Shown here: in pieces, positions 22,454-64,000 of the stretch
Layout: every line of letters starts with the position of its first letter
Position numbering within the stretch: the stretch's first letter is position 1
Origin: Owenia fusiformis
Lineage: Eukaryota
Length of the DNA stretch: 64,000 bases
Assembly (NCBI GenBank): GCA_903813345.2
Contig: CAIIXF020000001.1
Location: 14,942,001-15,006,000, forward strand
Direction of reading: 5' to 3'
Position numbers and translations under genes: made by a program
The notes under the pieces: model-generated
Told to the model about the DNA's origin: nothing
The model's input: the letters and a program-made list of their open reading frames with translations, nothing else
Databases searched by the model: none

Positions 22454-22879
22454 AAATGTGCCCTTTTAGTGAGTGAATGAGAATGATATGTATAAGTGTC
22501 GATCATTGACCTGCGTTTTGATTTAGACATGCACAAAACATTAGGCTCGCCGATTTATCAATTTATTGCAAGTTTGTTTCCGAGAAATGAATTCCACAAA
22601 AACTTTTGAACTATTTCTAATAATTTCTTGTAAAAGGCATATTTTCCGTACTAAGTTTTCAAGAATAAAATTTCCCAAAAGGTACTTGTTTATCCTCTTG
22701 AAAGTCGTAAAAATATAAAGGTTTCTTGTGGCTTGTCCAACTTTCCATAAGCTTAATAATATTGCTTGCATGGCTATTGGATTATTATGAGATTAAGTGC
22801 AAGCTATATGACAATATTGACAATATATTATGTATATCAAGACTTACCAGCAGCATTTATTTAATAAAGAAGATGAGAA

Positions 22880-30685: not shown

Positions 30686-30780
30686 CGAGATTGTTTGGCA
30701 ACTATGAATAATAGAACAAATGCTATATCACCGAAAACCAAATTGAGGTACAAAAGAAAATACTCCATGTGTATCTTAAA

Positions 30781-31727: not shown

Positions 31728-34700
31728 TTATGGCAACGCAAACGTCTGAAAATATAAAACAAAATGTTTAAGACACCTCTCCAAATTCAATGGTTTTAAA
31801 AGAAAATAAATAAAAAGTAAAGATCGACGTAAAGATAAACATACCCTACAAAATCCTTCTACACACATTGATTTCTCCGTTGCTCCAATGTCACTATAGC
31901 TACAAGCAGTGCCATCTGGGAAAAATGCTGACCTGTGTGAACCAGCAGTTCCGCGCGTGACTCGACAATTTACGTCACATAGGTTGTCACCTGGAAAAAG
32001 AAAAGGCTACATATGGAATCCTATTATTGTCATGAAAACTTTCATTAAAAGTTTATTATATATCTGAAAGTTATTTTGGGCACCAAAAGTGAGGTGAGGT
32101 ATGTGGTATTCTTGTGGTCTTCTTGCTTTTCAATCTTCTGACCTGTTACAATTGAGGGACTAAATTCAAGCATGAATTCACTTTAAGACACTATCAAAAT
32201 GGGAACTTGCATTTGCAAACTTATGGAGGAGGTGTATACCTCCATATATATTTTGGGCATCTAAAGTGGAGTGAGGTATGTGGTATTCTTGTGATCTCCT
32301 TGCTTTTCAATTTCTGACCTGTTACAATTGAGTGACTAAATTCAAGCATGACTTCACTTTAAGACACTATCAAAATCAAAATGGGCACTTGCATTTGCAA
32401 ACTTATGGAGGAGGTGTATACCTCCACATATAGGAACACCGCAATACTCCCATCTTCTACCAGGATCAGTAGTATAACACCATGGCCCACCTATCTCATT
32501 GTCAGGATTTCTAGAAATAGACGAACGAGTTATACTAATTCTTTGTGTATGGGAATCAAATTTGGGAGGTACATACAATACACCTATCAGGATCTGTTTC
32601 CTTATGAGCTCTTATGAAACAGAATTAACCCCAAATAAGTAGCAAACCGCACTGACCTACAAAAGTTTTCGGCAGCTGCTAAAGAGCCATCTGGCACCTG
32701 CCAGTCTCTTACTCGGTGTGTATGCGGCGTCTGCGAATCCCAACGCTGACACGGTCTACCTCCCACAGTCATACTAGTCTCACCCATGTAGAGTCTACCC
32801 ATTGTGCCTGGCTTACAGTCTTCATCAACTTATATAAGCACAATACACTTTCCATATATATTAGTGATTTTTTAAAGCTTTGGTAATTAAAGAAGGAATA
32901 CGTTTTATCAAAGTCATTGATTGTACAAGCTGCACGTGTACACATCATTATGAATAAAAAAGAAATATAGATATAGGCCCTTTCATTATATATTAATCTG
33001 GACATAGGTGGCATGAAGAAGCAAAGATATTTTACCCTCCCCCAGTCCTGCCCACTCTATGTCTCCCGTCAACACAGAGCTTGTAGTGTGGTTGAGGCAT
33101 ATTTGTCTTCCCAAATTACGTATCCCTTGCTCCACCGTCTCTATGTCTTGATCATCAGCATTACAATCCTTCAAGCAAAACGAGAGCACATAGTACATAT
33201 ACCTTAACTACAGGGTGTCCCGAAAGTATGCCCCCCCCCCTAGGCAGACTTATACCAATGTCTCCATAGTATGTGTCATATATCATTTTAGATCCTATCC
33301 AAAGTTACATTGATTTGCCAAGAAGTATCATGGTTCAACTCACAGACGGTAAAACGTTACAAGCATGTCAAAACTTCGTGTTTGGCCAAAAATATAGTTC
33401 ATTTCAGTATCGTGGAAACAGCAATGACCTGAATGTGGCCGAAAATATGGGTGCTTTTGTCGAAGATAAGATGGCTATTGAGTTCTATAAGAGGACGTCG
33501 AGGGTAGATACTCCAAGGGAACTCTTCTAAAATGCCTTAAAAAGGTTTTAAGAGGATTACAAAACGCCACATCCCTATTTGAAGCGCGTATATATATATG
33601 AAAAGCATTGCTGATGTTTACATGGCCTAGGGAGACACACCGACTATTATTTTGGTGTTAAATTTACTTTAAATTTGGCCAAACACTAAATTTTGAAATC
33701 CCTGTAACTCTTTCAAATTTGTAAGTTGAACCATGATACTTGGCAAATCAATGTAACTTTGGATGAGCTTTAAAATGATGTATGACACATACTATGGAGA
33801 CATTGATATATGTCTGCCTAGGGGGGGGGGGGGGGTATACCCTGTATATGTATGTAGGAGTTGAGCAGCGTGTGTGTGTGGAATATCTAAGCACGAGTGC
33901 CAAAGGGATAGAAATGTCTGTTGTGCTTTCTCTGGTGTGTTCGAGCTTTAACATCTGCTGCCTCTAGTCAGATCGACTAACAAAACAACCATTTTTTGGG
34001 GTTGTAGAGCGTGTCCTCGACCTGTAACATCGATTCTAAACATATGATCATTTAATGATCTAGAGACCATAATTGACCTTGAATTTTGACGCCCTATATG
34101 GGAGCCTGTCCCTACATTGGCAGAAGAGTCAGGGAATTTTGTTAACATACTATTGCCCCCAATAGTAAGTTGCCGTGAATTTTATTTCAGCCGATTGATT
34201 CTACTTCATCCCTGACTATTAACATTACATGGGGTTTACCTTAGCTTGTACAGTCATCATTGCGTATCACTTGGATACATTTGATGGAACAATGACAATT
34301 TAGTGTAGTAGGAAGGTATGGTCCCCATGCACCCGAAAGATGTATTTTTTTAATGTACATTTTTGTAATCCTAAAGGTCCATACTAAAGATTTTTGCATG
34401 TTCCTAGAATGAAATATTGTCTCATGGTATCCATTGGCGGCCATCTTGTCAGCCATCTTGAATTTTTGAAAGAGTTGGTGTTAATTATCTCAAAGTACAG
34501 TTTTGAGAATTGAAAGCTGTAAGTGGTACCAAAATGAAGCTTTTATAGTATCCTATATTATCAGATGCAATAATTATGCAAATTGCCTCATTTGCATAAA
34601 ATGTGACATCATCAATCATAATTCTTGCCTCTTTACAACGGTATCGCATTATACCTTTCCGCCTGAGTGATCAGTCTTAGTCATTCATGAACATAAATGA

Positions 34701-46700: not shown

Positions 46701-49700
46701 CCCCCCCTAGGCAGACATATTCCAGTGTCCTCATAGTATGTGTCATATATCATTTTAAAGCTTATCCAAAGTTACATTGATTTGCCAAGTATCATGGTTT
46801 AACTCCCAAATAGGAAAAAGTTACAGTTATTTCAAAAGTTAGTGTTTTGTCAAAATAAAGTTAAAATTTTCACCACATTACTAGTCAATGAGTCTCCCCC
46901 TTGGCCATGTTAACAGCAGCAATTATTTTCAAATATAACCTTAAAAGCCCTTCCAAATAGGGGTGTGGAATTTTATAACCCTCTTAAAACCTGTTAAGGC
47001 ACTTTAGAAGAGTTTCTTTAGAGTTTCTACCCTCACCGTTCTCTTTTTCCAACTCAATACCCATCCGACCCAAAAAGAATTGCTGCTGCTAAGATGGCCC
47101 GGGAGAACACATTGACTATTGATTTGGTGTAAAATTGAACTTAATTTTGACCAAACACTAAATTTTGAAATGTCTGTAATTTTTTCACATTTGAGAGTTC
47201 AACCATGATACTTGGTGAATCAATGTAACTTTGGATAAGCTTTAAAATGATATATGACACATACTATGACGACACTGGTATATGTCTGCCTAGGGGGGGG
47301 GGGCATACTTTCGGGACACCCTGTACATGTCATTTTTCAAATATTTCAAGTCTAAATATTGCTATATGTTGTAAAAGATGATTATTAATTCATGAACCCG
47401 ATAAACAAATATATACTGTAATTGTAAGTTTTATTGCACTAGTTATTTGGTAAATATAGGTTTAAAACAGTTAGATTTACATTTAGAAGGGAAATGTGTT
47501 GATGATGATAATGATAGAAAATGTTCCTTATCGTTGAGAAATTAATCAATTGTTACTATCAAGCTTGAGAATATTCAACAGGAATTTATTTAGAACTCAT
47601 TTTTGCTTGCCAAATAGTACTTCAGTAATAATTATATGTACAGGCAACAGATAGAGTAGATCGCACACTTAGACAACACCCCTACCAGCCATTAGATGCA
47701 CACGAATATGAAATGATGGTTGAATTGAATATTTCGGACTTCAAGTCAAGATGGCGGCAGTAAACAAGTAAACATGGTTTTGAATGGTTTATTTAAGTCG
47801 GGCGAATTTCAGATTTGAGAAACAATAGCGCGAATAAAGTATTTTTTCTATTGGTTCATCAAGATCGCGCGACCGTAATATTGTCACGCGACGAATAAAA
47901 TATTCGCGCGATGGTTCGCGCGGTTCTGGTGGCGATACCGCGTCATAGATGCCCGGGTATTCCGGTCGATTTTGAACAAAATACTCATCGACCGGGCGCG
48001 TGAGATGATATAGATACTAATGTTTACTTTTCTCTGCGCCATACTGCATACTTCAAATCAGAACCCTACTATGCTTGTGTAGATTATGTGCGCTTGTATG
48101 TGGATATCATTCCAGGCATCGTAAATGGTTACCTGGAGAGAAAGCATGCACCAACTTGATACATCCCGAACTTACAATTTATCCAGCCCCTCCATCCGAA
48201 CAAGTGGCAAACTCACCAAGTTATCAATGGAAAGAGTGTCTAAGGTTCAAACTGACTATGCTCGAACGACCAATGATTTTAGACATCGTCCATTGGATTG
48301 GAATGTTCATCATTATCATTTGTATTTGGAGCAGGTCTAAGGAGTTAATCATTGGGACTTCATTCGTAGCATTATTCGACTTCATGCAATTTGTATACAT
48401 GATTAAATTATACCCCGATCCTAAACCCACGAAATTCCGAATTCAACTTACATACGCGGTCATTGCTGGATTTCCAATGGGAACCATTGGAAAAATGGTG
48501 CTTGCACTATCCATGGACGGATATATTCAGCTATATGAAGTACTTGGTGTTTATCAGTATGTATTTGAGGCAATAGCTGGGATCATCCTTATTATATCCA
48601 TAATTGCCATTTTCGCGCTTTGTGACAAATCCAGTAATCATGATGATGATGCATCAGCGTGCACATGTTTCATATTAACAGGGATCATTATACTTATATT
48701 TGCATGTGCAGGGGTAGCAATGGCTGTAATGTCGTATTTATATATGAAGCAACAGAACATTCGAGTAGATGACTTGAAAACGATGTTAAACATAGATGAT
48801 AACTCTGCAGTGCTCAAATCATGTCCATGCTGGACATGGGCCTTCCTTGTAATATGGATACCTCTGATGATTGCGTCGCTTGTGTTCCTTTACGTCTCAT
48901 CAAAAGGTATGTTGAATACCAACTAACTTGCAATTTACATATTCATTGAAACAATAGATTCATAAATGTATTTGTAAATGAGTTGTTTCAATCATACTAG
49001 CAGGGAACTTAGTTGTAGGTTTGCAAATCCCCTGATAAAATTCACAACAATAAGATTTCATGTATGGACTATTGAAATTATATTGTTTCCTTATGCGAAC
49101 TTGACCTAAGACCGGGGACCTGAGATGACCTCAATATTATGTAATGTTTAGCCAAGAAGCGTATATAACCAAATTAATTCATGACGTTTGATCTTTGATA
49201 TGATTTTGATAGATATAATAAAAATATAACTGATTAACACCCAAATCTCACAGTTTGAAGTAGCAGTACCAAGGCGTTGACAAGTAATAGTAAGAGTAAG
49301 TAAGTTGCCCATAAGTGTAAATTGCAATGAATTTTATTCCAGACTATGGATTCTACTTTATCCCTGATTACATAACGCTTCATGGGTTTTACCTTAGTAC
49401 AGTAATCCTTGCGTATCACTTGGATACATTCGATGGAACAACAATGCCACTTATTACAAATGGCTACATGTTATTCCCTCTCATCATGTGCTTGGTGCTC
49501 ACCGTCATATACCACTTGGTTGATGTACATGGGATGACGAGACAAATGACTGATGTACATGGGATGACGAGACAAATGAAAAAGGAAGGATACGAACTTT
49601 TCAGAGTCACTGGGCAAACAAGGAGAGATATAGAGCATCTGTTTAAAAGCACATGGGATCCACAAGAAGCCGGATCTGGGCAAGATACGGGGGGTTTGAA

Positions 49701-52700
49701 ATACTCTCGATATGTCATTACTGATATTGCAAAGTTACATAATCCTACATTGTATAGACGATATGTTGCAGGAAAGGATACATTAAAAAGAAAAAACAAA
49801 GACAAACCTCCTCTTAAACTTGAGCAACAACGACAAAACAGAGAGATATTGCCTGTAAACACGAGTACAGTTGGTTGCACCCATCTAGACTCCATTAGAG
49901 ACAATGACAACAATGAATACTTTTTGTTCCATGGTACTGGCGATGCCACCAGTGTTGACGGAATTTGTAAAAAAGGATTCCTTTTGAGCAGAGCAAGTAA
50001 GCATTCTCTCTTTGGGAAGGCTGTATATCTGGCAGAACGTTCAGTCAAGTCAGATCAGTACTGTGGTAAGTCTACATTCATTAGCCTATGCATAACCATA
50101 CATAACAGTATTACATGTATATTACCATTTGAAACGACGTTATAAAACAGGTGAGGTGAAATAAAAATATTGAATCACATTTTCGTTTTCCAAAATTACA
50201 ATATCGAATTAAACTATTTTTCCACATTTAATTTTAGATGGAAAAAGCTACGAGAATCTTCATATGTTTGTTGTTCGTACATGTTTAGGACGCTCCTTTC
50301 TGAATGATGACTTTAACAAGTATACTGATCTTCCATGCACAAAAAGGGGATGTATGGTTGAAAACTGTAGAAATCATCCTGAAAAGTTTGACACTATCGT
50401 ATCTGACCTTGGAGCCAGAATGAGATTTCGAGAGTTTTTGATATTTGACGAGACACATTGTTTTCCCGAATTTCTGATTGTATATGACAGAGTTGCAGAC
50501 AGCTAGCCTTCTTGTATTAGTAATGACTATTGTTTGCAGAAGCGATGAACTTTATCACCTCCCCATGGACCACGCATGTTGAGAAGGATTACAGATTATA
50601 AGTGTGAAATTATTTTATTTATGTTTCAGTTAATTTCAATATCTCTTTTGTTTCAATTCATTTATATTCATTCATAGAATCGGACAGTTTATATCTGAAT
50701 CAGCAACGCAAGTTGTCATTCAGTGCATAATGTGGAAACTTAGTACTGGAATATTCTTGGTGTGAAATTATTTCATTTAGATTAGGCCTAGTTAGGAAAA
50801 TGATGGGTAAGTGAGTGTTGATTTAAATTAAGAGTCAAGTTCAATAAGATCGCGGCCGGCTGTTGAAAAACAGTATCTTATTCGTTCGAACCCCATACGA
50901 GTCTTTGATTCTGTAAATATTCATTTGTAGATACAACATTTTGTACATTATGTTCTATATATTTGGAGTTATATTATAAAACTTTATAAACTCAAACTCA
51001 TTTGCTTTTGCTTTGGGCAAAGTGGTCATTCTGAAATAAGGTTAATTTTGTTTCCAGTGGATTTTCGAAAGTCCAAATAAAATCCCATGATATTCCGGCC
51101 CTAGCCACACTACCACATACTTGTTGTTAATAGTGGGGCTAAGTTCATTTCAGTGTATTTACCAACATTAATATGTTATTTTATAATTAAGTCAGCTTAT
51201 GTAATAATTTGTTCATGAAATGTTTTGTTTTATTGATAACAGTAGAACTACTCAATTGTCTGATAGAACTTAAAACAGACTAAAATTGAGTAATATTCAT
51301 GTCAACAATAGAGGTATTAAGACAGCCGATGTGGCAAAAAAAATTTTTTAAAAGAAAGGTCACAAACAAAGAGATATTTTAACTGTGTTGAAGAATTGAA
51401 ACGCTTAAAAATGGCTTGTTTTCTAAAATTGCCTAGAATAGCGTTAACATGTAGTGCAACAAATCCATCGTTGTTTGCAATAGGCATTCATTTTAATTTA
51501 CACTATGAGTGGTCAGAGCAGATGTATGCTGAATATACCAAGTATAAAAGGAACTTACTTGATTGTTACAGAGTGCTGCCTCGTAGTAGCTCCCAGGACA
51601 TTTTGTGTTCTTTGGCCTTAAAGATAAAACAAGCAAAATTAAAAATACTTCGTCAAACAATATCCAAAAATATAGTGCTTTAGTCCCTGATCTGGACGCT
51701 CTGAAAAAAGTTTTGTTGTCCGGTACTTTCCCACATAAAATGATTGTACCGTTTGAAAGAATAGACTTCCCTCTTTAAGAAAACACCTCTTCTATTGATG
51801 TAAACAGAGGCAAAAGGCACCAAAACGGGGTTAGACAAGGTAGCATTCTGAAGTCTCACTTTCTTGTCATCACGATTCCAGGTAAACCATCAGACGGATT
51901 TACTTCAAATTTTCACACATGTTACATGGTAAGAAGTTCTAGAGCTGATTAACTTTGCGGCGGCCATTTTGCATTCTGGCAGCCATCTTGGAATTTTTTT
52001 CAGATAAATATTGTCATCGCGATTCCACAAAAACCACATAACAGATGTACTTCAAATGTTCACACATGTTACATGATAAAAAGTCCTAGACCTCATTATT
52101 TTTTCGGTGGCCATCTTGCATTCTGGCAGCCATCTTGGAAGTTTTAAGATAAATCTTGTCATCACGATTTCAGGAAATCCAAACGGATTTACTTCAAATT
52201 TCCACACATGTTACATGGTAAGAAAATATAGAGGTGAATAACTTTTTGGCAGCCATCTTGCATTCTGGTGGCCATCTTGGAAATTTTGGGATAAATCTTG
52301 TCATCGTGATTCCAGGAAAACAACCTAACAGATTAACTTCAAATTTACACACATGTTACAAGGTATGAAGTTCTAGAGCTGATTAACTTTTCAGTGGCCA
52401 TCTTGCATTCTGACGGCCATTTTGGAAGGTTTATAGATAAATCTTGTAATCACGATTCCAGAAAAACCACTTCACAGTTTTACTTCGAATTTTCACACAT
52501 GTTACATGGTATGAAGTTCTAGAGCTGACTAACTTTTCGGTGGCCATGTTGCATGCCGTCGGCCATCTTGGAAGTTTTTAGATAAATCTTGTCATCACGA
52601 TTCCAAGAAAACCACGTAAGAGTTTTACTTCAAATTTTCACACATGTTACATGGTTGTAAGAAGTTATAGAGCTGATTAACTTTCCGATAGCCATCTTGC

Positions 52701-55700
52701 ATTCTGGCGGCCATCTTGGAAGTTTGTAGATAAATATAAAATACAGTCAAAGCATTTACCACCAACAGAGGATGCTCTCATTCTCCATATAAATAGAGCC
52801 AACTATCAGGCCTATATTTGGCGAAACGCAGGCAAATCAATGATTGATTATCAATCCCCCACATTACATGGTTGGACATTCAAAGGGAATAAACTACAAA
52901 TTAAGTGGATGGAAAACGGTCCTGCCCCACAAGAAATAATGGAGCTTGTTGCTTGTAGTTGTAAAGGAGCGTGTGACTCAATGAGATGTAGTTGTAAGAA
53001 ACAGGATCTCATTTGTGGAAGTTCATGTAAGTGCCGCAAAGGTGTGTCTGAGAACTGTCCAACCCATCAGCACGATGATGTTGATGAGAGCGACAATGAA
53101 TATGAACCAGTTGATGACACCATTACACCAAACGTTGAAGATCAGGAAGAAAATGAATTACCTGAAAATCTCTTACCTGACAACTGGATGAACCAACTTG
53201 TCAAAGTTGATGCCATAATATGAATTATCTCACCCTGTATATACACTGGTGATCCGCTCGATTACAGGTACGATTTGTCCTTATTCCTTATTTCATGCGT
53301 TGTAGGCAGAATCCTCTCGACGTTTTTTCTCACAAACGTGAATCAGTATCATATGTCTTAGAAAATGTACATGTTTGCGAAAAATAGCTCAGAAGACGAC
53401 AGAATCGTCGATTTAATTCCTAACTTAAGTTACATAAAGGTTTGGGTTAAAAGTGCAGATCTGAACTGTTTTTTCGAATTACCGTTTATGTAACTTAAGT
53501 GAGGAATTAAATGTACGATTATGTTGTCTTCTGAACTATTTGTTTGCAAATATGCACATTTTCTTAAACATATGATACTGATACATGTTTGTGAGAAAAA
53601 ATGTTGTGGGAATTCTGCCTACAAAGTGTGAAAGGAAAAAGGAAAAATCATACCTTCGATGTTCCCACATTTTGTTTCCGAAACAAACCATTTAGGTAAC
53701 CAGCATAATCGAGTGGATCACTATAATATACTTTAGTAGTCTTTAATAATGTTAGGGAGGATGAGTTGTAAGGCATAATATGTCATGTTAGATCATGATC
53801 TATACTATTTTTATTACAATTTACCAGTTACACTTTCTCCATGCTAGGTTCTGTTATAACTTTTGTTCCGTTTCCTATGGCATCCGTGCTTTATACATTT
53901 ACATTCACAATGGTCCCTTCCTGGTATATTTTTTTAGGTTTTATGACTGTTAAATTATATAGTCTAGTTAACACCACTTTATAAACAGGTTTATTATTAC
54001 TGGTGTAACTAACACAACGAAAAAAATATAATTAATTTATTTGATTTTATATAACATGAAATTATTTTTTCTTTTTGATAAAACATTGCTTATTAGAAAT
54101 ATATTTAGTTGAAAACTTAGAGTAAACAATCAGTTCTTCTATCACAGTTTATTTTGGTTCAGTAGATTTTTCTATACATTATTTTTATGTCACCACCACT
54201 AGTGATTGGGTGACATATTGTAATAGCTTCGAACGTTTATCTTGACACTGTTCAGTAGTTAATGTGTACTGTATACTTAACAAGGTGTGGTGACATTTTG
54301 CATTTTTCTGCATCGTCACTACTATTGAAAGCTTATGTTGATATTGTAGCAGTGTTTTTTAAGTTCTTTTTGTTGGTACAATTAGTTTCCAAACCCTTAC
54401 TTATATCGATCTGACACACAGTTTTAGTGCAGGTTTAAGTGATTTTTGTTGATTATTAAACGCAAAGAGCACATGTGTCTCAAACTCGCAACATTTTGGA
54501 TACAGAGCCCATTCACATAGTTTGACATGCTGGTGCTCTCAACCAGCTCGTTAGTTAATATCTGACTAAGAGACAGCTTGCTTTCCCGATGAAGAAACGT
54601 TGTCTGCAGCTTTTATGAGTACTAGTATCTACAACTATTTTTGATCTGTTTATTCCCATATTAGATTATTGTCTTGGGATATTCAGGTTTGATTTTTGTT
54701 TGCCAGTTTTACACTTTACAGTTTGCTTTTCCCACTAGGTTGCTTTACACTTTTTCCTTTCTCATTTGTCATTTTTGTTTATATTTAGTAAGGATATGAT
54801 ACGCAGGTCTCTCCTTCTGTGTGATCACCTGTCCAGAAGATAATTCAACTGCATGAAGAACATTTCATTGACATGATGCACAGTGAAAGGTTTTCCACAC
54901 ATTTACATTTTCGTTTAAAAGAGCTTTAATTCCGTTATATACTCAGATCAAGGCCAATTTAGCATACATTTCGCTCTCAAAAACCACTGTACAATAATGG
55001 ATTTCAAAGAAATGTTTGACGTTTTTAATAATCTTTTTCTTTTTGATGAAATGTAGTTATTTATTCTTAAAATCAATCGATGTCATACACAAAATGCATT
55101 TAAGTGGTATAAAGTACAGAAGCAGAGTAAAAATATGTATTTTAGAATATCACCATGTGTTACCCCATTGTAGCGCCTCTTGCCCATGTTTCTATCAATA
55201 TAAAACATGATAGCATACACCAAATATGCATTTATGTCAAATTATGTGGTTTAAAATACAGAAAAATAGATAACATTCTCCTTAGAATACCACCTTGTGT
55301 AACCCCACTTTACTGCCTTTTGCCCCTGTTTATATCAATATAAAAGGTAGCATGTAACCTTCCTTGTAACATGTGTAAAAGTTTCAAAAAAATCAGTAAA
55401 GTGGTTTTCCTGGAATCACAATGACAAGATTTATCCAAAAAACTTCAAAGATGGCCGCCAGAATGCAAGATGGCCTACGAAAGGTTAATTAGCTCTAGAA
55501 CTTCTTACCATGTAATATGTATGAAAATTTGAAGTAAATCCGTTTGGTTTTCCTGAAATCGTGATGACAAGATTTATCTTTAAACTTCCAAGATGGCTGC
55601 CAGAATGCAAGATGGCCACCGAAAAAATAATGAGGTCTACAACTTTTTACTATGTTACATGTGTGAACATTTGAAGTACATCTGTTATGTGGTTTTTGTG

Positions 55701-58700
55701 GAATCGCGATGACATCTAAAAAGTAATATACAAGTATTGTTAACTCACGCAGGAGAATCGCACGACCTTATTCTTTTTCTTACACCTCCTCCGCATGTGG
55801 AAGTACATTGAGTCCATGCACCCCACTGGCCCCAGGTACCCAGGACTACTTGGGGACGACCCAGGTTTTCCCACAATCTATCAGCATCTGTAGTCCAGTC
55901 CGTGCATCTCGTGTTCCGTCTACACCACTATTGAAAAATGAGATAGACGTGTATGTTTCTGCTCACTGTCCAAAATATACGTTTATTAATTGATTTTGCA
56001 CAATAGAGATCTCAGATATAATATATTTCAAGTTTGGAGTAAAATATAGAATGGCGCTCACTTTGTTTTCATAGCAATACGTTCCTTCTACGTTCCCTAC
56101 GCGGAAAGCTGTCCTAATATCATAGTTATCATAGTTGATACATTGTATGTGAGCATCACAGGTACCCTACAAGGAACGGGAAAGACCATTCTTAATATTG
56201 TATGCCATTAAAGTTATTGGTACATATTCATCTTATTAACTGCTTTGACCTTTTACAATACGATTTTTAAAGAATAATAGGATTTTACAATATTGTTGAC
56301 ATCTTACTAGTTGTGTCAACTTCTCAAAGGATTTTGAAATAATGAGAATTTTACAATATTATTGACACTATCGTATTGATCGCGCTGAGTTTTTACAATA
56401 AACATTTTCAGAGGATAACAGAATTTCGCATATACTGCGCTCTCTTTAAAGAAGCAAAGTCGAATTAACGGAAAGAGTAAATTTTGGACTCCTGGTTTTA
56501 CACAAATGGTTTATAAAAAGTACATTTCATATTCTTAAACTTCTAACATATATTCTGTTGACTTGTGTGTGACCCAAGTCCCCTCGCCCCGTGGTTACAA
56601 AGTATTCTTACCCTACTTGTACCATATATGTATCCCTTATTGCCATCATCTTTCATGTACGTAAAACTGGAGCCAAAGTGTTTCTCACATTGCTTATTAA
56701 TATCCAAACGTTGGCCTGGCAGTTCGTGTCCTTCTACCATATTAGGTAGTTGATAGTGCTCATATACGTTGTCATATACGCAAGCATTTGCACCTAATAT
56801 CCTGTAAACATAGTTCTCGATACAACACTGACAATGATCGCCATTAAAATATTTTAAAAATCCATATACTATGTATCCATCAATATACTAGGGTAGTAGG
56901 GTTCTGTTACAAAGTTCCGAATGTGGCAGAGTTATTGATAAGTAAAATATACCTCATCCTATTGATGAAACTCTCCGCTCCACATGGGGAGTAGCCAGTA
57001 GATCCACCACTCATCATATATCCTCTTGGTGACGGCAATCGACAGTCGTCACGTCCAGTGTAGTCAACATCGTGCCTCATACCCATACTGTAAAGCACAA
57101 GTCACATTTGCTCTACGGCGACAGTACGTCGTTCGTAGTTCGTTGAAATCAGTAAATTTCTACGGTGCTCGTAGGAAAACTGCGACCGCCTTGTGGTCAC
57201 CATGCGGCGAACCCAGGTTTTACAGGCCGTAGAAATTTTAACTTGCAGTAAGAGATGATCAGTGTAACATTTCATTGAAGCATCATGAGCAAGGTGTAAT
57301 AAGGTAGACATTCCGGTAACGTAGAGTGGGTTGAAATGCGCCTGTTATACAGGGTGTCCAAAAAAAAACAGGACCGTAAGAAAGTTGAATAACTCGGTCA
57401 ATTTTGCATATTTCGCCTTGAAATTTTAGAATTACTTAGTTCATTCAATGTGAATTTTGTTCCAAAAGTTTAATGATAATCTGTTCAGTGTGTCAAAAAC
57501 TACAGTCCTTTTCAAAACATGCTCAAAGTGGGCACTTCTCCTCTCTATGCACAAACGAATTCTGCGAACAAAGTTGTTAATGACCCTGACCTATACACAT
57601 TAATGTGGATGGTAAATATTGGGGTAGTTATTGCCCTCTTAAGATTGTTAGGGGCCTGTCAGTATACTCATTGGCTTTGAGAAATCCTCAAAGATAAAAT
57701 TTGGGGGATTTAGATCAGGCGAATGAGGTGCCCTTGCCCATATGGTTTGCGTTCTGCTGATGAGCTGATGAGCTGACCACCAAAGCATTGCCTAAACCAT
57801 TTCAGCATATCATTTGCAGTGTGGGGGTGGTATTGGCTTGTTGAAACCACTGCTTAATTATCTCCTTAGATGTCCCTTCTGGTGCTTAGTGACCTCCAAA
57901 ACTAGGTGAGAACTTACTGGTCCTTGTTCATGGTGATAGCACGTCCACAGTCACCTTCGAACCAAAAGGGACTGATGATTCCATGTTTCCTCATTGCCAC
58001 CCAGGCAGTGCATTGTTCAGAATGCAATGGATGCTGTAACACTTCATCAGGAGGATGTAAGCTCCAGTAGCAATTGTTCTTTGAACAAACTTGTCCATTC
58101 AGAAAGACATGTGTGTAGGAGGATCATCAACAACTTTGTTCGCCGGATTGAATTGAGCATAGAGATGAGAGGTGCACATTTGAGGCATGTTTTGTAAGGA
58201 GCTGTAGTTTTTGACTCAATTGATAGATTATTATCAAACTTTCACAACAAAATGCACATTGAATGAACTAAATAATTCTGAAATTTCAAGGCAAAATATG
58301 TAAAATTGACCGAGTTATTCAACTTTCTTACGGTCCTGTTTTTTTTGGACACCCTGTACTACTGTTATATATTAGGACTGTCTTGTCACGGATGAAAAGA
58401 TGAATGAAGTCAAAAATTATACAGACATTATTTGCAAGATGTTCACAGAACCATATTCCTCAGTTTAATTGGAGTAGTTTTTGTTTATAAAAAAGAAGAA
58501 ATGACTTAAGTGTCTCCATATGCTTACGTATGTCCCAGTTCATGAGCGACACATATGAGTCCACTGAAATGCGCATTTGCCTGGCATATAGAAGCAGTGT
58601 TTCTATTGTGACACAAACCGTTTACCCACGCCCAACCAACTGCTCCGCAAACGTTCCTGAATTAAAGTAAAACGTGTCTGGTTTAAAGGAAAATCGTTGT

Positions 58701-61700
58701 TCCCAATACAATAAAAAGAGGTGCATTGCATCACAGTCATCGTCACGTACCGAATTTATGTGCAGTTCCGCTTTGTTATTTGAAAGGTTGGTCATGTTCA
58801 TGCCAGACTATTGTAAAATGTACCAAAACGTTTCGCCATACATTAACTCACTTTACGACAAAATGTGCCACGTCCCATGCTCTTCTCTCGGGATGGGAAG
58901 CCTGATAACTAGCAGTGTTCCCCAAGGATTGGCAATCAGTCCGATTGTCACCATACCACTCTAACTGCAATATAAGTAGTCCACATCAAAATTTTACATC
59001 TGCAGTATAAAATATTGTGACGTGTCGCAAAAAGCTCGCGCACGCATTGTTACACATTTTGTGGCGTAATCCAGATAAGAGGATCCCCGCTTTTAACATG
59101 ATAGAATGAGACGTTTTTGAGAAAAATGTACACACATGAAAATCCTTTCGACCTCCACATTTACCTCTATATCTCAAAACATTTTAGACGAATAACTCTG
59201 ATATCATATATATATTGTTAATGGGCTAGGAGCATCATAAAACACGAATCAATTGATATTTTAGGTGAAATAAATATACGTGTTGCTGTGCTTGAAAATA
59301 GGCGAATGGCGTAAACTAGCCCTATTTTAATGAATTTTGAAAACCTTTCGTCCTCCACTTTTCCACATACAACAGAAATCACATACTTTTGTGAACAAAA
59401 TCAACTATTTATTAATAAACTAGAGTTTAGGAGCAAAATAATCATGTATGATTTATTAAAAATTGATCTCGTATTTTTTGTTTAATGTACACCTGAAAAG
59501 TTGAAGGTACCAAAAAATGAGCAAAAAAGGTCGCTGTCAACAGATTCTATTTTTCAGACTCTATGACGTCACAATATGGGACGCTTACTAAAATTCGTCG
59601 TTTGAAATAAAACTACCTTTATCAAGACGAAAAATAAGTATAATAGTCATATATTGTTTGAGTTATGAGCGTTTAAAGACGAAAAATAATTCAAAATGTA
59701 ACGTGTCAACATGGGATATTTGCCAGATGTTTTGGTAAAAAACTCTTTTTTAAAAACGAACGCGCAAAAAATGTGAACGGAGTGTAGTTGATCTAAAATC
59801 TTCATCGAAACAGCTTTAAAATGATATATAACTTTAATTAGAATATTATCTTATAATCCGGGGAATCAAAGTTACATTCACGCGATACCCTTAAAAAACA
59901 AATGCGCCACCTTTTTGCGACACGTCTGTACGTTGCCAACAAATCACCGGACATTTTATAAAACGTCGGTCATTGAAAAGGAATCTATGAGCCATTTATG
60001 TATTCATCTGGGTTTAACGAATAAATGAGATGGGTTGAAGGCACTCACCGGTGTCTGTTCATAAAAGAATACTCGCGTAAGAGTGGTGCTGATTGGACGA
60101 ACAAGTTTGTAGTCATGAAGCAGAGCACCTATCTGGAAAAGTCAAAAATCAGATGATAAGTCTACAATACTACTACTACAAGCTGTAAATATGTTACATT
60201 GATTTTGATAAAAAATACAGGGTGTCAAATAAGTCCCGCCCCCCTCTACAGCCAAAACCAAGATATTTGGTACCAAGTGTGATATATCATTGGAAAGGTC
60301 GTCCAAAGTTACGTTGATTGGCATATATCTGACACATGTCAATCAATCTCAGAAACTTTTACATTGTATCAATTGAGGTGACCATATGCCTAGAAACATG
60401 GCAATTTGGCGTATTTGGCACGATTTTAAGAATCGTATATAAGAAAGGTCACAGGACCAAAATATGACTAAATATGTTTATGGCGATGAATTTAACCTAT
60501 TTATGGATAGGGTTAGATGTGTAGAAAATAGAGGTGCAAGGAAAGTGGTGAAAACCTTTTTGTAACAAGTGGAATGTGAAAAAGATTAACTTTTTGATGT
60601 ATTTCTGAGGTCATATCCTTGTCATTTTGAAGCAAAAAAGCTACTTAAAGGAGGGCACGTTAATTTTAAAAGACATCATAAAAATATAGGTAAATTTCAT
60701 CCAAAATACTTGAGAGTTGGTGAGTTAACATAACTTTGGATGATCTTTCCAATGGTATATCACACTAGGTACCTTCTGTTAAGGTTTTAACTGTAGCAGG
60801 GGGGACGGGACTCATTTGACACCCTGTAAATAGAAAAGTCAGAGGAGTTGGCGTCTTTTTTTCAATTCTAACGAATTACACATTTTTAGCTTTAGATATT
60901 CACTAATCGTTGCTTTTGATCAATTTTGTTTGCATTATTTCTAAATATTTCTTCCAACGTGTCATACTCTGCTATTCTTTGCATTTACTTCAATGAAGGG
61001 TGAAGTTAGACAAGAAACCGACTGTGACAATATGGCAAATTGAGCCTGAGGCCCAGGAATGCGTTAAAAATGTTCAAAAAGTCCCCTAGTGTACTGAGTT
61101 AATGACAGTATTCCCGGGCCTCAGAATTGAACATTAATAAGCGTGAAGGCAACAATACCCCATTAATAAAGATGACGATGTAGCTTGTCATAGCGTCAAG
61201 GTCTCCATTGTATACTCGTGATATTTCTGCAGTTAGGTTTCCACCAATAAACATGCTTGTCTCAAAATTTGCAGGTCTTTCCTCTAGTGATTCAGCCCCT
61301 GTTTATGGATTTATACAGTTTGAGAAATATATTACACTGTGGCGTATAGTACGACATCAAAGAAATAAATGGTGGTATAAAGTGAATGACAGGCTCAGCC
61401 ATGCCATATTCTAAACCTGACCTGCTTCGCAGATATAGTAATAATCTGGTGTTGTTGAATGGCAATAGTCCACTTCCAAATTAAACGTATCATCCAGCCC
61501 ATCGTTGATTATAACACATTTTTGTTCTCTGTCATTTACATCTCCCACCAACTGATCCTGGATGTGTGCCGGCTGAAACATCATCAACAGATAACAGATA
61601 ATCATCACTGATTTTATTTGTGGACTGTTGATGTGCATCAATCATTCTGGACCACATGTTAACCTATACAAATGTCAGCTAGATCTAACACATAGTGCTA

Positions 61701-64000
61701 TGAATTGACACATATTATCTACATATGGTATATGACGTTAATATACCTTATACCAAGACCCGATGTCCCATGCCCATTGTCTTGGTTCATACACGCCAAC
61801 TTCCAATCCACTGGTCAACCAATTTGACTCTCCCACTACAGCTTCGTCCTCAATCAGTCCCTGAACAAATGCATACTCACCGTCTGTGTCAAGACTAACC
61901 AGCCTAGCTCCCAGATCTGCGCACGCACTTTTGGCTAGCACGTGACCATTGACATTCTGGCCAGAGCTAACCCAATAACAATGGTTGTCATAGAATTCCC
62001 CACCTCTGCTCTCACAATCTATTAAAACGTTAAATATTACAAGTGCTACGTCGTCCACATCTAACGATGCTTTAAACTTTAATTTGCGCAATCAATTTCA
62101 ACAACAGTAGATAACCTGATACAATATTTACCCAACACTGTCACGTTCGCAACACCTGGCGTATCATCTCTACAATATGGTATACCACAGAATCTCCATC
62201 GCACGTTAGGGTCTGTTGTGTAGCACCAAGGACCTCCTCCCTCGCCATCTGGGTTTCTGGACGGATTAAAAGTCATTCGTGAAAATTATGAAGAAAATGA
62301 CAGTGAAAGTGATGTACACATTCATACAGATTCCTTGACTAAAAAATGACAATGTATTTAGGAGAAAGCAATACGAGGACATAAAATCCCGGCATAAAAT
62401 GCACTCTATTCAAAGTGGCAATGGGAGTATTTGTTATTTGCTAGGAATATGATGTTCTCTAGACTTGGTTCATTGAATGACATTTACCTGTAAATCATTA
62501 TGTTCATTATAAGGTCTTTGGTGATCCAATTATAAGCATGCCTTAAAAATGTTAGTATCTACCTGCAATAATTAGCTGCATCTGCCAAGGTGGCATCAGG
62601 AAAGTCGTCAGGATTTGTTCTAGTATGACTGTGAGGTGTTTGACTGTCCCAGCGCTGACATGTTATACCAGTCATAGTTGTACTCCTCGTACCAATATAC
62701 TCTCGACCCATACGAGTTGCCTTACATTGCGTAGCTGAAATTGACAGATACCAATGAAGTCAGTGCAGCAGAAATGTACACTCGGTGAGAATGAACTTCT
62801 CTTGGAGACGTATGCACAAAGGAATTCCCCCTCTTCTTCCGATTTTTGATATATAATGATGAACAAAGAATACCTACTTAGCCTAGACAAATTCCATATA
62901 TCTTTAAATACGCGTACTGTAGTACCTGTTTTACACTCGACGACATAGTATATGTACCACTCTTGGCCAGGGTTTCCATTGGTAGATGTTCCACTGACGG
63001 GCTCCGGACTAAGTCTACATTCTCTCGTCTGTAAGTTATAATCACACGATTTACAAGTAAACGTTGTCTCCTGAAGGCAGGCAGTTTTACATCCTTCCTG
63101 TGTGAGATCTTGTACCGTCTTCTGAGGCGTTCCAGGCATTGCTGTTCCAGGGAACCGATTGAATACCCTTTGCAGACACTCTTATTAAAAATAAAAACAG
63201 TACTTTGCAGAACAAAGATATTTAATTAAAAATGGTAAAGGGGTATATGAAAACGATGAAATCAAGGTAAAATGACACTCTATTGCACTGATCTCGTACA
63301 TTGTCGTATGACACATGATACAATTTAAATAGTCAGTTACCACTCAGACTCAAACAAATTCTACCTTCAGCTTGATACAGCATGCCTTCTTCGCTATCAT
63401 CTGCTATAAGGTAGTCCACTTGAGATTCTAGCGGTTTTTGCTTCTCAATAGTTTCTTGGAGCAGTTCGTCTTTCACTTCGTACATGACATGATCACCATA
63501 ATTTTCAACTTGATGGTCACGGGATGGCATGATTGCTCTAATCGTTTCTCCACTCTTTATAAGCCCGATCTGGAAATAAATAAATGACAATTGAAAAATA
63601 AACTTATTGATGCAAACCATGAAACATTTGATAGTGAAAACAATTTTTAATAGAAAGAATACTTCAGCAGCCTAAACGTGTATTGGAAGAAACGATGCAA
63701 CACTACCATTTTGCCAATACAAACTGTGGCTATCACAGGACCACTGTATTGCTCCCCTTTAATCACAGATATAGTTTCGCCACTGTATACACAATCAGGG
63801 TCAAATGTTATGCGCTGCTCATGCCCATCTTTGGTCGTATAAACGGACTGGAATTCCGATCCTGCTAGTACCCTGGCATCTCTTTTGAGTCTCACTACAT
63901 GAGTATCACGATCGGCCTGAAGTACAACCAGACGGACATCAAGATCATTGAACCAAACATATATAAGTTCTATTTCATCGTTTTGATGTGGAATACCATT
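31728..64000 (-). CDS. ADAMTS-like M12B zinc metalloprotease with PAN/apple, two kringle and C-type lectin domains; 5' end beyond window, >=1054 aa
   Basis: 21 phase-consistent exons: 64000-63707 and 63569-63365 (prodomain); 63180-62926 (PAN); 62734-62563 and 62256-62132 (kringle 1); 62018-61747 and 61572-61422 (CTL); 61298-61159, 60132-60049, 58964-58852, 58656-58528 and 57087-56953 (catalytic, HELGHT|MGMRHD, Met-turn GYMMS); 56801-56612 and 56166-56062 (LPGQ..D...QC, EGT.C, disintegrin-like); 55927-55749 and 51616-51559 (TSP1, [37 protein letters not shown]...CNNQ); 33168-33036 (Cys-rich start); 32828-32657 and 32510-32422 (kringle 2); 31990-31845 (DGTAC...CVEGFC); 31745-31728 (stop). Minus-strand AATAAA at 31666-31671. 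Confidence 0.9.
32073..32430. repeat. ~180-bp tandem duplication in a protease intron that includes a splice donor
   Basis: 32073-32250 is near-identical to 32251-32430. Both end in GAGGTGTATACCTCCA, the minus-strand GGAG|GTATAC. Confidence 0.85.
33211..33844. mobile_element. Tc1/mariner MITE, family A copy 1
   Basis: TA-CAGGGTGTCCCGAAAGTATG...ACCCTG-TA. Internal [12 protein letters not shown] resembles the Tc1 WP.NSPDLNPIEN motif. Confidence 0.85.
35102..35745. mobile_element. Tc1/mariner MITE, family A copy 2 (nested)
   Basis: TA-CAGGGTGTCCCGAAAGTATGGG...CATACTTTCGGGACACCCTG-TA. Confidence 0.9.
35886..36404. mobile_element. Nested MITE with 9-bp TSD and internal short tandem repeats
   Basis: TIRs CCCAGGGGTTCACTG and CAGTGAACCCCCCGG. 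TGTAAAATA is duplicated at 35877-35885 and 36405-36413. Internal (ACCAATGCCATACCAAAT)-like repeats. Confidence 0.8.
36650..38525 (+). mobile_element. Degenerate RLE-class non-LTR retrotransposon (HERO-like) RT and zinc-knuckle relic
   Basis: Frameshifted peptides [25 protein letters not shown] (RT YADD-equivalent), [33 protein letters not shown]....CPKC and NHILS...YRWRHD. Confidence 0.8.
39228..40450. mobile_element. Transib-like non-autonomous element with CAC termini and 5-bp TSD
   Basis: Left end CACGGTGCCCATGTCAAGCTGCGCGCCTACT; right end (reverse complement) CACGATGCCCATGTCAAGCAGCGTGCCTACT. TSD TCAAC at 39223-39227 and 40451-40455. Many internal CAAACTGCGYGC repeats in both orientations. 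Confidence 0.8.
42080..42490 (+). promoter_or_regulatory. Candidate promoter of the TM-PARP gene with STAT/GAS, CRE, C/EBP, CCAAT and TATA motifs
   Basis: TTCCCGGAA 42085-42093, TGACGTCA 42099-42106, TTATGCAA ~42144, CTGATTGG ~42192 and TATATAA ~42478. A possible 5'UTR donor GTAAGT lies at ~42632. Confidence 0.4.
43642..50506 (+). CDS. Multi-pass (~8 TM) membrane protein fused to a C-terminal PARP (ARTD) catalytic domain, ~612 aa, nested antisense in a protease intron
   Basis: Exons 43642-43768 (tentative first exon), 48187-48906, 49343-50065 and 50238-50506, all joined in phase 1. PARP motifs: [77 protein letters not shown]. The last three exons are well supported; the first exon and the 48187 acceptor are less certain. 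Confidence 0.85.
44304..44852. mobile_element. Foldback MITE with TAG...CTA termini and 3-bp TSD (Academ-like)
   Basis: TAGTACTACGGCCAAG...CTTGGCCGTAGTACTA with ~160-190-bp inverted arms and AAA on both sides. Confidence 0.8.
44923..45515. mobile_element. Probable Crypton-like non-autonomous element
   Basis: GTTATTCAC...GTGAATAAC inverted ends, with internal GATATTTCCCGAAGG and CCGAGGAATA motifs. Confidence 0.4.
46393..47948. mobile_element. Non-autonomous TIR element with CpG-rich TIRs, carrying a nested MITE
   Basis: CTATGACGCGGTATCGCCGCCAGAACCGCGCGAA and TTCGCGCGGTTCTGGTGGCGATACCGCGTCATAG. No clear TSD. Confidence 0.75.
46678..47323. mobile_element. Tc1/mariner MITE, family A copy 3 (nested)
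   Basis: Near-identical to 35102-35745 in the opposite orientation, with TA TSD. Confidence 0.9.
52738..53223 (+). pseudogene. Academ-type transposase C-terminal fragment with tesmin/CXC-like Cys cluster
   Basis: [28 protein letters not shown]...P..HGW......IKW....[37 protein letters not shown], followed by an acidic tail. The 5' part is missing. Confidence 0.8.
53244..53722. mobile_element. Inverted-repeat MITE
   Basis: CACTGGTGATCCGCTCGATTA and TAATCGAGTGGATCAC, with internal symmetry around ~53460. Confidence 0.75.
57350..58356 (-). mobile_element. Tc1/mariner (maT/rosa-like) element with decayed transposase
   Basis: ~170-bp TIRs beginning TA-CAGGGTGTCCAAAAAAAA.CAGGACCGTAAG. Minus-strand relic peptides [21 protein letters not shown]...PH and PHSPDLNP. 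Confidence 0.85.
60218..60826. mobile_element. Tc1/mariner-type MITE
   Basis: TA-CAGGGTGTCAAATAAGTCCCG...CGGGACTCATTTGACACCCTG-TA. Confidence 0.85.

Follow-up and report, generated by a model that had tools for sequence, protein, structure and literature searches.

Gene structure and domain order

The window analyzed here is a 64,000-nucleotide stretch of the genome of the annelid Owenia fusiformis with a base composition of 35-40% G+C and numerous interspersed repeats. Its minus strand carries a gene whose predicted product joins a zinc metalloprotease core of the M12B, or ADAMTS-like, type to a set of binding modules that stand ahead of the catalytic domain. By reading the minus strand in three frames, and by taking acceptors, donors, and phases for each exon piece by coordinate, we obtained a model of 21 exons that runs from position 64000, where its 5' end is open, to a stop codon at 31730-31728 (Table 1). 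All 20 introns are GT-AG, their lengths range from 99 to 18390 bases, their phases are consistent, and the joined exons form a single open frame of 3165 bases and 1054 residues with one terminal stop. The residue count uses a donor chosen by homology for the second exon of kringle 1; in the numbering of the first version of the model, the protein ends at residue 1046. The encoded modules, from the N terminus onward, are a putative M12B-type propeptide, PAN, a kringle, a C-type lectin-like domain, and reprolysin; these are followed by a disintegrin-like domain, TSP1, a linker of 44 residues, another kringle, and a short Cys module.

When two predicted Owenia proteins, here called P0006 and P0010, were aligned to the window by tblastn, collinear matches extended from 63928 down to 31845, and four exons were located in this way (60132-60049, 58964-58852, 51616-51559, and 33168-33036). 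A competing arrangement, with an exon at 58807-58712 and a different frame for 58962-58856, produced an apparent frame break and was rejected. Homology to P0006 and P0010, together with identity to a third deposited protein (P0020, described below), establishes 60132-60049 and 58964-58852 as the true exons, with no break in frame.

Phase-1 intron borders flank PAN, kringle 1, and the lectin-like domain, and the end of the propeptide and the start of the first catalytic exon are also in phase 1. The coordinate-based model therefore reproduces the phases given in the original prediction, which were 1-1 for PAN, 1-2-1 for the kringle, and 1-0-1 for the lectin. The two exons of the C-terminal kringle (1-2 and 2-1) again lie within phase-1 borders. 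Only 123 bases separate the last lectin exon from the first catalytic exon, which begins in phase 1 and has no Met.

A small family of Owenia proteins

Evidence for a single gene comes from P0020 (CAH1773240.1), a deposited partial protein of 644 amino acids. It is identical at 644 of 644 residues to positions 403-1046 of the model (first-version numbering), and the window therefore contains the locus of P0020. This identity also confirms 14 splice junctions, including the one that joins lectin to catalytic exons and those across the two long introns, one of them of 18.4 kb. The deposited protein begins midway through the first lectin exon, at 61839, without a Met and continues to the stop, and the public model therefore lacks the propeptide, PAN, and kringle 1 as well as half of the lectin-like domain. 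The deposited model of the locus is thus truncated at its 5' end, and the window supports seven further upstream exons along with the rest of the exon in which P0020 starts.

A search of longer proteins with the first kringle exon retrieved P0006 (1149 amino acids, 80% identity) and P0010 (944 amino acids, 73%), both from Owenia, and the precomputed Pfam lists of both place PAN and Kringle together with Reprolysin, ADAMTS_CR_2, and TSP_1. In P0006, the propeptide (34-103) is followed by PAN (199-264), a kringle (288-367), reprolysin (546-726), ADAMTS_CR_2 (744-819), TSP_1 (847-895), and two kringles, and P0010 has a Lectin_C match at 415-521. In a five-protein alignment, the window protein shares 68% identity with P0006 (700/1026), 68% with P0010, 41% with P0165, and 40% with P0022. 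All four are collinear with the window protein along its whole length, and the order of Pfam domains is the same in the paralogues. The cysteines of the PAN, kringle, and lectin-like modules are kept throughout the alignment except in P0022, whose deposited model lacks the PAN module. The domain order is thus the same even in paralogues with as little as about 40% identity.

Identities between the window protein and P0006 are 65% in PAN, 80% and 66% in the kringle exons, 67% in the lectin exon, and 61-74% in the catalytic exons, so that conservation of the inserted modules is roughly that of the protease core. The paralogues do differ at the carboxy terminus, where P0006 carries two kringles and the window copy carries one. 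In P0165 and P0022, which are 96% identical to each other, the zinc-site region is degenerate (HEFGHLLRFAHN), the Met-turn stretch is missing, and the C-terminal kringle has decayed. The degenerate site and the missing Met-turn indicate that the family also has members that are probably inactive.

Searches for relatives led back to the same few proteins. A HMMER search of 1.84 billion cluster representatives, with P0006 as the query, found the catalytic domain in just three of the best 150, all from Owenia, and none of those 150 carried it outside Owenia; the lowest score listed was 189 bits, so a relative of the same build at ~25% identity could be missed. When 164 proteins were screened with parts of P0006, the catalytic, disintegrin-like, or lectin parts were found only in P0006, P0010, P0020, and P0022, and the remaining proteins matched through kringle, PAN, or TSP1 repeats only. 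The catalytic and disintegrin-like region of P0006, compared with a word-indexed protein collection, matched only P0006, P0010, and P0020 among 633 candidates. P0006, P0010, P0020, P0022, and P0165, a cluster mate, all belong to Owenia fusiformis and are encoded on four different large contigs. Because P0020 is identical to the model and the same build recurs in four more Owenia proteins at 40-68% identity, this is a small gene family of at least five predicted Owenia fusiformis proteins, neither a one-off nor an annotation fusion, and the gene is not unique. Family members are already public as uncharacterised proteins (CAH1776938.1, CAH1791207.1, CAH1796111.1/2, and CAH1773240.1).

Catalytic core, carboxy terminus, and head

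Pfam families were sought on single stop-to-stop pieces of the minus strand at E<=0.1, and the catalytic half was also examined through P0020. The zinc site HELGHTMGMRHD is intact in the window protein, as originally proposed; a 1440-base intron divides it into HELGHT and MGMRHD, and it is followed by the expected Met-turn (YMMSGG). In P0020, the catalytic domain matches Reprolysin_5 (E 2.7e-12) and Reprolysin (E 4e-8), the disintegrin-like domain matches ADAMTS_CR_2 (31.1 bits versus a cutoff of 27.3), and the central TSP1 matches TSP_1 (E 1.6e-12). No Trypsin match was found in any family member, and a metalloprotease occupies that place. A structure predicted for P0020 by AlphaFold2 from a five-sequence alignment was unusable, with a mean pLDDT of 27.6.

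Beyond TSP1, the protein departs from what had been expected. The disintegrin-like domain, TSP1, the lack of a spacer, and the stop codon were correctly described, but the supposed Cys-rich domain was not. The Cys-rich domain of ADAMTS proteins has >100 residues and 10 Cys, while here the thrombospondin type 1 repeat is followed by a linker and a kringle, and the terminal module has about 50 residues and falls below Pfam cutoffs (in P0020, ADAMTS_CR_3 at 20.6 bits versus a cutoff of 21). The original prediction also made no mention of a second TSP1 exon (51616-51559), the linker exon (33168-33036), or the two-exon kringle (32828-32422). No spacer family appeared among the Pfam matches of P0020, P0006, P0010, P0022, or P0165 (E<=0.01 to 0.1), and the window protein ends 5 residues beyond the Cys module.

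The lectin-like domain of the window copy is called through its relatives, as the paralogues score against Lectin_C (24.0 bits in P0010, 24.1 in P0022, and 21.9 in P0165; cutoff, 22.6) and the first lectin exon of the window is 67-68% identical to P0006 and P0010. Against solved structures, the best matches of the family's lectin-like domain were to venom lectin-like proteins, and these were weak (E 0.005-0.05), a level that reflects a shared fold family only and no special relationship. At the places where we presume that a Ca2+- and sugar-binding lectin would carry EPN or QPD and WND, the domain has KPA and EVD, as judged by eye. The proposal that the protease is targeted to glycans is doubtful, and the lectin-like domain of the head is probably protein binding.

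Whether the head belongs to the pro-region or to the mature enzyme depends on where the chain is cut. In the alignment, RIKR, RTKR, or RPKR stands at the end of the propeptide in four of four paralogues, about 25-30 residues before PAN, and no convertase site lies between the lectin-like and catalytic domains of P0006, P0010, P0165, or P0022. With a site ahead of PAN, it is more apt to regard the head as the N terminus of a mature enzyme than as something inserted in the pro-region; the location originally given, between prodomain and protease, stands. Hydrophobic N termini were noted by eye in P0010 and P0165.

Table 1. Exons of the metalloprotease gene, listed in the direction of transcription
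Exon	Position	Strand	Phase	Supporting observations
P1, M12B propeptide first part, open at window edge	63707..64000	-	ends 0	Donor GTAGTG; 61.5% identity to P0006 52-129
P2, propeptide end and acidic linker, ETIEKQK	63365..63569	-	0-1	
PAN/apple	62926..63180	-	1-1	PAN_1 E 3.9e-9; 65% identity to P0006 199-283
Kringle 1 exon 1	62563..62734	-	1-2	Kringle E 1.7e-12; 80% identity to P0006
Kringle 1 exon 2	62132..62256	-	2-1	Kringle E 4.1e-10; donor 62131 by P0006/P0010 alignment; nearer GT 62155 also in phase
C-type lectin-like exon 1	61747..62018	-	1-0	67-68% identity to P0006 and P0010; P0020 starts inside at 61839
C-type lectin-like exon 2	61422..61572	-	0-1	Covered by P0020 at 100% identity
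Catalytic exon 1	61159..61298	-	1-0	No convertase site before it; P0020 identity
Catalytic exon 2, between repeat insertions	60049..60132	-	0-0	tblastn with P0006/P0010; splice sites; P0020 identity
Catalytic exon 3	58852..58964	-	0-2	tblastn; P0020 identity
Catalytic exon 4, ends ..AHELGHT	58528..58656	-	2-2	Reprolysin_3 E 6.3e-5; P0020 identity
Catalytic exon 5, MGMRHD and Met-turn YMMSGG	56953..57087	-	2-2	tblastn; P0020 identity
Disintegrin-like exon 1	56612..56801	-	2-0	ADAMTS_CR_2 E 0.0023; ADAMTS-1 alignment
Disintegrin-like exon 2	56062..56166	-	0-0	tblastn; P0020 identity
Disintegrin-like end and TSP1 first half	55749..55927	-	0-2	Donor GTGAGT; TSP_1 E 1.1e-8
TSP1 second half, after 4132-base intron	51559..51616	-	2-0	tblastn; splice sites; P0020 identity
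Linker, 44 residues, after 18390-base intron	33036..33168	-	0-1	No Pfam family; P0020 identity
Kringle 2 exon 1	32657..32828	-	1-2	Kringle E 1.3e-9; P0020 identity
Kringle 2 exon 2	32422..32510	-	2-1	Kringle E 1.9e-9; P0020 identity
C-terminal Cys module, ~50 residues	31845..31990	-	1-0	Adt-1 E 0.003, below cutoff
Last coding exon, 5 codons and TAA stop	31728..31745	-		C terminus matches P0006, identical to P0020

Neighboring genes and repeats

Downstream of the protease on the same strand lie two tandem TIMP-like genes (28064-30727 and 20419-22465), the first of which starts ~1 kb past the protease stop. TIMP matches were obtained on four exon pieces (E 2.5e-6, 2e-4, 0.0033, and 0.017), and the two copies share 80% identity in their last exons. 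Their products may inhibit the neighboring metalloprotease.

Inside the 18.4-kb intron, on the opposite strand, an open frame contains a match to the PARP catalytic domain (E 4.6e-10), and a 301-residue open frame stands just upstream of it (regions 49321-50506 and 48021-48926, plus strand). Both frames may be nested or repeat-borne genes. A minisatellite at 17590-19051 (28 copies of a 52-base unit, 92% matches) has no stop in any of the three minus-strand frames and thus mimics a repeat protein. A 145-base tandem array (6 copies) is found in the 18.4-kb intron, and the first TSP1 exon is closely followed downstream by a related array with a 142-base unit (2.4 copies; the two regions are 51862-52735 and 55365-55714).

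Comparison with known proteases

Canonical ADAMTS proteins consist of a signal peptide, pro-region, metalloproteinase, disintegrin-like domain, central thrombospondin type 1 repeat, Cys-rich domain, and spacer, with variable modules at the carboxy terminus, according to the available part of PMC4448532, and the original prediction had this background right. The same source states that a cysteine switch is generally missing in ADAMTSs. The Owenia protein resembles ADAMTS-1, -4, and -5 in having a reprolysin domain with HExxHxxGxxHD and a Met-turn, followed directly by a disintegrin-like domain and a central TSP1. When the catalytic and disintegrin-like part of P0020 was compared with solved chains, ADAMTS-1 ranked first (E 1e-5, 28 bits, 113-306), its alignment extending across the catalytic and disintegrin-like domains, and ADAMTS-5 came next, followed by adamalysins and snake venom metalloproteinases that aligned to P0020 around the zinc site only. 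At 28 bits to ADAMTS-1, this kinship is very distant. The protein also differs from ADAMTS enzymes: three binding modules separate its propeptide from its catalytic domain, whereas the portion of PMC4448532 consulted gives ancillary domains at the carboxy terminus only; the 100-residue Cys-rich domain and the spacer are missing, their place taken by a linker, one or two kringles, and a Cys module of 50 residues; and the convertase site of the paralogues precedes PAN and is missing in the window copy.

The front of the protein is instead reminiscent of plasminogen and hepatocyte growth factor (HGF), in which an N-terminal PAN/apple domain directly precedes a kringle, the kringles are encoded by two exons with phase-1 borders, and the binding head stands in front of the protease domain. 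Residues 209-370 of P0006, comprising PAN and kringle 1, align to plasminogen 11-165 in one stretch (86 bits, i-E 9e-24), P0165 behaves as P0006 does toward plasminogen, and the PAN and kringle of both also align to the NK1 part of HGF. The pair is thus collinear with its plasminogen/HGF counterpart, bearing out the earlier suggestion of a plasminogen/HGF-type N-terminal unit. The PAN exon of the window alone gave no match to solved chains at E<=0.01, and the C-terminal kringle of the window aligns to all five plasminogen kringles. Unlike plasminogen and HGF, the Owenia protein has a zinc metalloprotease in place of a trypsin-like serine protease, an M12B propeptide ahead of PAN, and a head with one kringle plus a lectin-like domain.

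Lectin-like modules also accompany M12B proteases in the P-IIId snake venom metalloproteinases (RVV-X, carinactivase, and multactivase), where they act as protein-binding exosites far from the cleft, as in RVV-X (PMC4885070, available in part). In those enzymes, the lectin-like chains are separate polypeptides, disulfide linked or bound to C-terminal domains, while the Owenia module is in cis and N-terminal to the catalytic domain. Full-text searches of the literature outside subscription journals listed no paper on a propeptide-PAN-kringle-lectin-protease architecture, and PMC4448532 and PMC4885070, in the sections available, describe no ADAM, ADAMTS, or snake venom metalloproteinase with exosites N-terminal to the protease.

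Interpretation and alternative explanations

Taken together, these data make it probable that the window carries one Owenia fusiformis gene, a member of a small paralogous family, that encodes a modular M12B (ADAMTS-like) zinc endopeptidase, presumably secreted. The original prediction that PAN, kringle, and C-type lectin-like modules lie within one gene between an M12B-type propeptide and a reprolysin/ADAMTS-type core is confirmed by the 21-exon frame, P0020, and the paralogues. PAN and the kringle were probably acquired together from a plasminogen/HGF-like gene, and the lectin-like module was added, through shuffling of phase 1-1 exons before the family diversified. Class 1-1 module shuffling predicts phase-1 flanks, in the part of PMC8001218 available, and phase-1 introns on either side of the PAN, kringle, and lectin-like modules are as predicted, in agreement with the origin first proposed. 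In the paralogues, a furin-type convertase would cut after RIKR, RTKR, or RPKR, upstream of PAN, and remove the propeptide from the secreted zymogen. In the active enzyme, PAN, kringle, and lectin would then form an N-terminal exosite array, and TSP1, kringle, and Cys module a C-terminal one, and the two arrays together would present a protein or matrix substrate to the catalytic cleft. The logic would be that of the C-terminal ancillary domains of ADAMTS proteins and of the lectin-like exosite of RVV-X. The window copy, which has lost the convertase site, would either be activated by another route or retain its propeptide, as ADAMTS9 and ADAMTS13 can. For the window protein, its secretion, activity, and targets are predictions from its sequence.

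Several results weigh against this reading. The family signal at the front of the protein is faint: Pep_M12B_propep reaches 15.4 bits (E 0.029) in window exon P1, below the cutoff of 23.7, and scores 23.7 (equal to the cutoff) in P0006, 21.7 in P0010, and has no match in P0165, and a search of the word-indexed collection of longer proteins with the propeptide exon gave 64 candidates, none significant. Scanned singly, the two lectin exons of the window have no Pfam match at E<=0.1, and P0006 has no Lectin_C match at E<=0.01. The 5' end of the gene, with its signal peptide, lies beyond base 64000 of the window, and all relatives are gene predictions from one species. In the window copy, ETIEKQK takes the place of RIKR, RTKR, or RPKR, and the convertase site is absent. 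Three RNA runs and one DNA-like run (X1) with the same species label were placed on 55700-64000, the RNA runs sampled to 1.66-1.92 thousand million letters each (6-12 in 100; tissue unspecified). In all three RNA runs, depth was 0 in the bins of 11 of the 15 exons in this interval, only repeat-like reads were found near the other 4, and no exon-exon joint was seen at any of the 14 introns. Seven of the listed X1 differences fall in exons, 4 of them silent and 3 residue changing, too few to show constraint; the check was limited to the 21 differences listed for X1, with 211 more not listed.

Each RNA run placed 1533-1804 reads, all at ~57.1-61.2 kb and mostly 95-99% alike, in repeat stretches where the word depth of the DNA run is in the thousands. 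Two introns in this interval contain repeat blocks (57350-58400 and about 59019-61080) with many RNA reads 95-99% alike and very high DNA word depth. Contigs of X1 join 57350 to 58401, so that another individual lacks an insertion of ~1 kb. A structural difference between individuals is also seen at 62814-62903, in the intron that separates PAN from kringle 1, where an X1 contig has 77 other letters in place of 88 bases. As a whole, the RNA data give no support for expression, yet they are not proof of silence.

The expression data invite the view that the copy in the window is silent or in decay, either intact through chance or only recently disabled in its regulation or activation, with P0006 and P0010 as the working members. 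The 11 exons without RNA reads and the want of a splice joint in three runs fit this, as do the loss of an RxKR site kept in four of four paralogues and the repeat insertions of up to about 1 kb in several introns, one of them absent from another individual. Yet a 3165-base frame remains open across 21 exons and 20 canonical introns, and the zinc site, the Met-turn, and the shared cysteines of the five-protein alignment are all kept. Moreover, a deposited model that starts in midexon without a Met resembles one built from a 5'-truncated transcript, and the RNA runs were sampled sparsely from unspecified tissue. On balance we consider a silent copy unlikely. The replacement of the convertase site by ETIEKQK bears on another alternative, that the window protein is made but not activated by furin and so keeps its propeptide, as a latent or differently activated enzyme or as mainly a binding protein acting through PAN, kringle, lectin-like domain, and TSP1. 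Its sole R-x-K/R-R match is RLKR at residue 37, within the propeptide fold, and P0165 and P0022, with HEFGHLLRFAHN and a deleted Met-turn region, indicate that a degenerate site is tolerated in the family. ADAMTS9 and ADAMTS13 are active with the propeptide attached, as stated in the part of PMC4448532 available. Set against this, the catalytic motif, Met-turn, and catalytic cysteines of the window copy are canonical and conserved as in P0006 and P0010, which argues for retained catalysis, and other proteases or noncanonical sites could remove the propeptide. This alternative seems to us improbable.

It is far harder to sustain the idea that two adjacent genes, one for propeptide-PAN-kringle-lectin and one for an ADAMTS-like protease, have been misread as one here and misfused in the deposited models of the paralogues. 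P0020 does lack everything from the propeptide through kringle 1, as well as the first part of the lectin domain, and no RNA joints were seen, but P0020 itself joins lectin exons to catalytic exons. The intron between them measures 123 bases, and the catalytic exon beyond it begins in phase 1 with neither a start codon nor a signal peptide. A protease propeptide upstream of PAN would make no sense without a protease, and independent predictions give the same order at three or more further loci, which lie on other contigs and have identities as low as 40%. We regard this explanation as very improbable.

A bolder form of the single-gene interpretation, which we offer only tentatively, is that the family is a lineage-restricted "metallo-plasminogen," in which a plasminogen/HGF-like PAN-kringle head and a protein-binding lectin-like domain were shuffled in oweniids to a position before an M12B domain, leaving exosites N-terminal after the convertase cut. 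The propeptide would then act on a catalytic domain about 340 residues away, and the kringles would tether the enzyme to matrix or clot-like substrates bearing C-terminal lysines. The lysine pocket of plasminogen kringle 1 is built from two acidic residues in an NPD-x-D stretch, two arginines, and three aromatics. At the places that we take to be its equivalents, kringle 1 of the window has D, E, R, R, W, Y, and W, and the kringles presumably keep the residues that form the lysine-binding pocket of plasminogen kringles. On the same tentative reading, the two downstream TIMP-like genes could supply local inhibitors.

Implications

For the M12B proteases (ADAM, ADAMTS, and venom enzymes), specificity has been described as coming from carboxy-terminal modules, and the propeptide as directly preceding the catalytic domain. 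The Owenia family breaks both rules with its active site intact, and it is therefore a natural test of N-terminal exosites and of whether an M12B propeptide can serve as chaperone or inhibitor for a catalytic domain that lies about 340 residues farther along the chain. The family also offers a clean case of recent exon shuffling, documented by intron phases, in which a plasminogen-type PAN-kringle unit was placed onto a different class of protease. The public model of the locus can be extended by seven and a half exons, and the presence of active-looking and degenerate-site members in one genome allows these properties to be compared within a single family.

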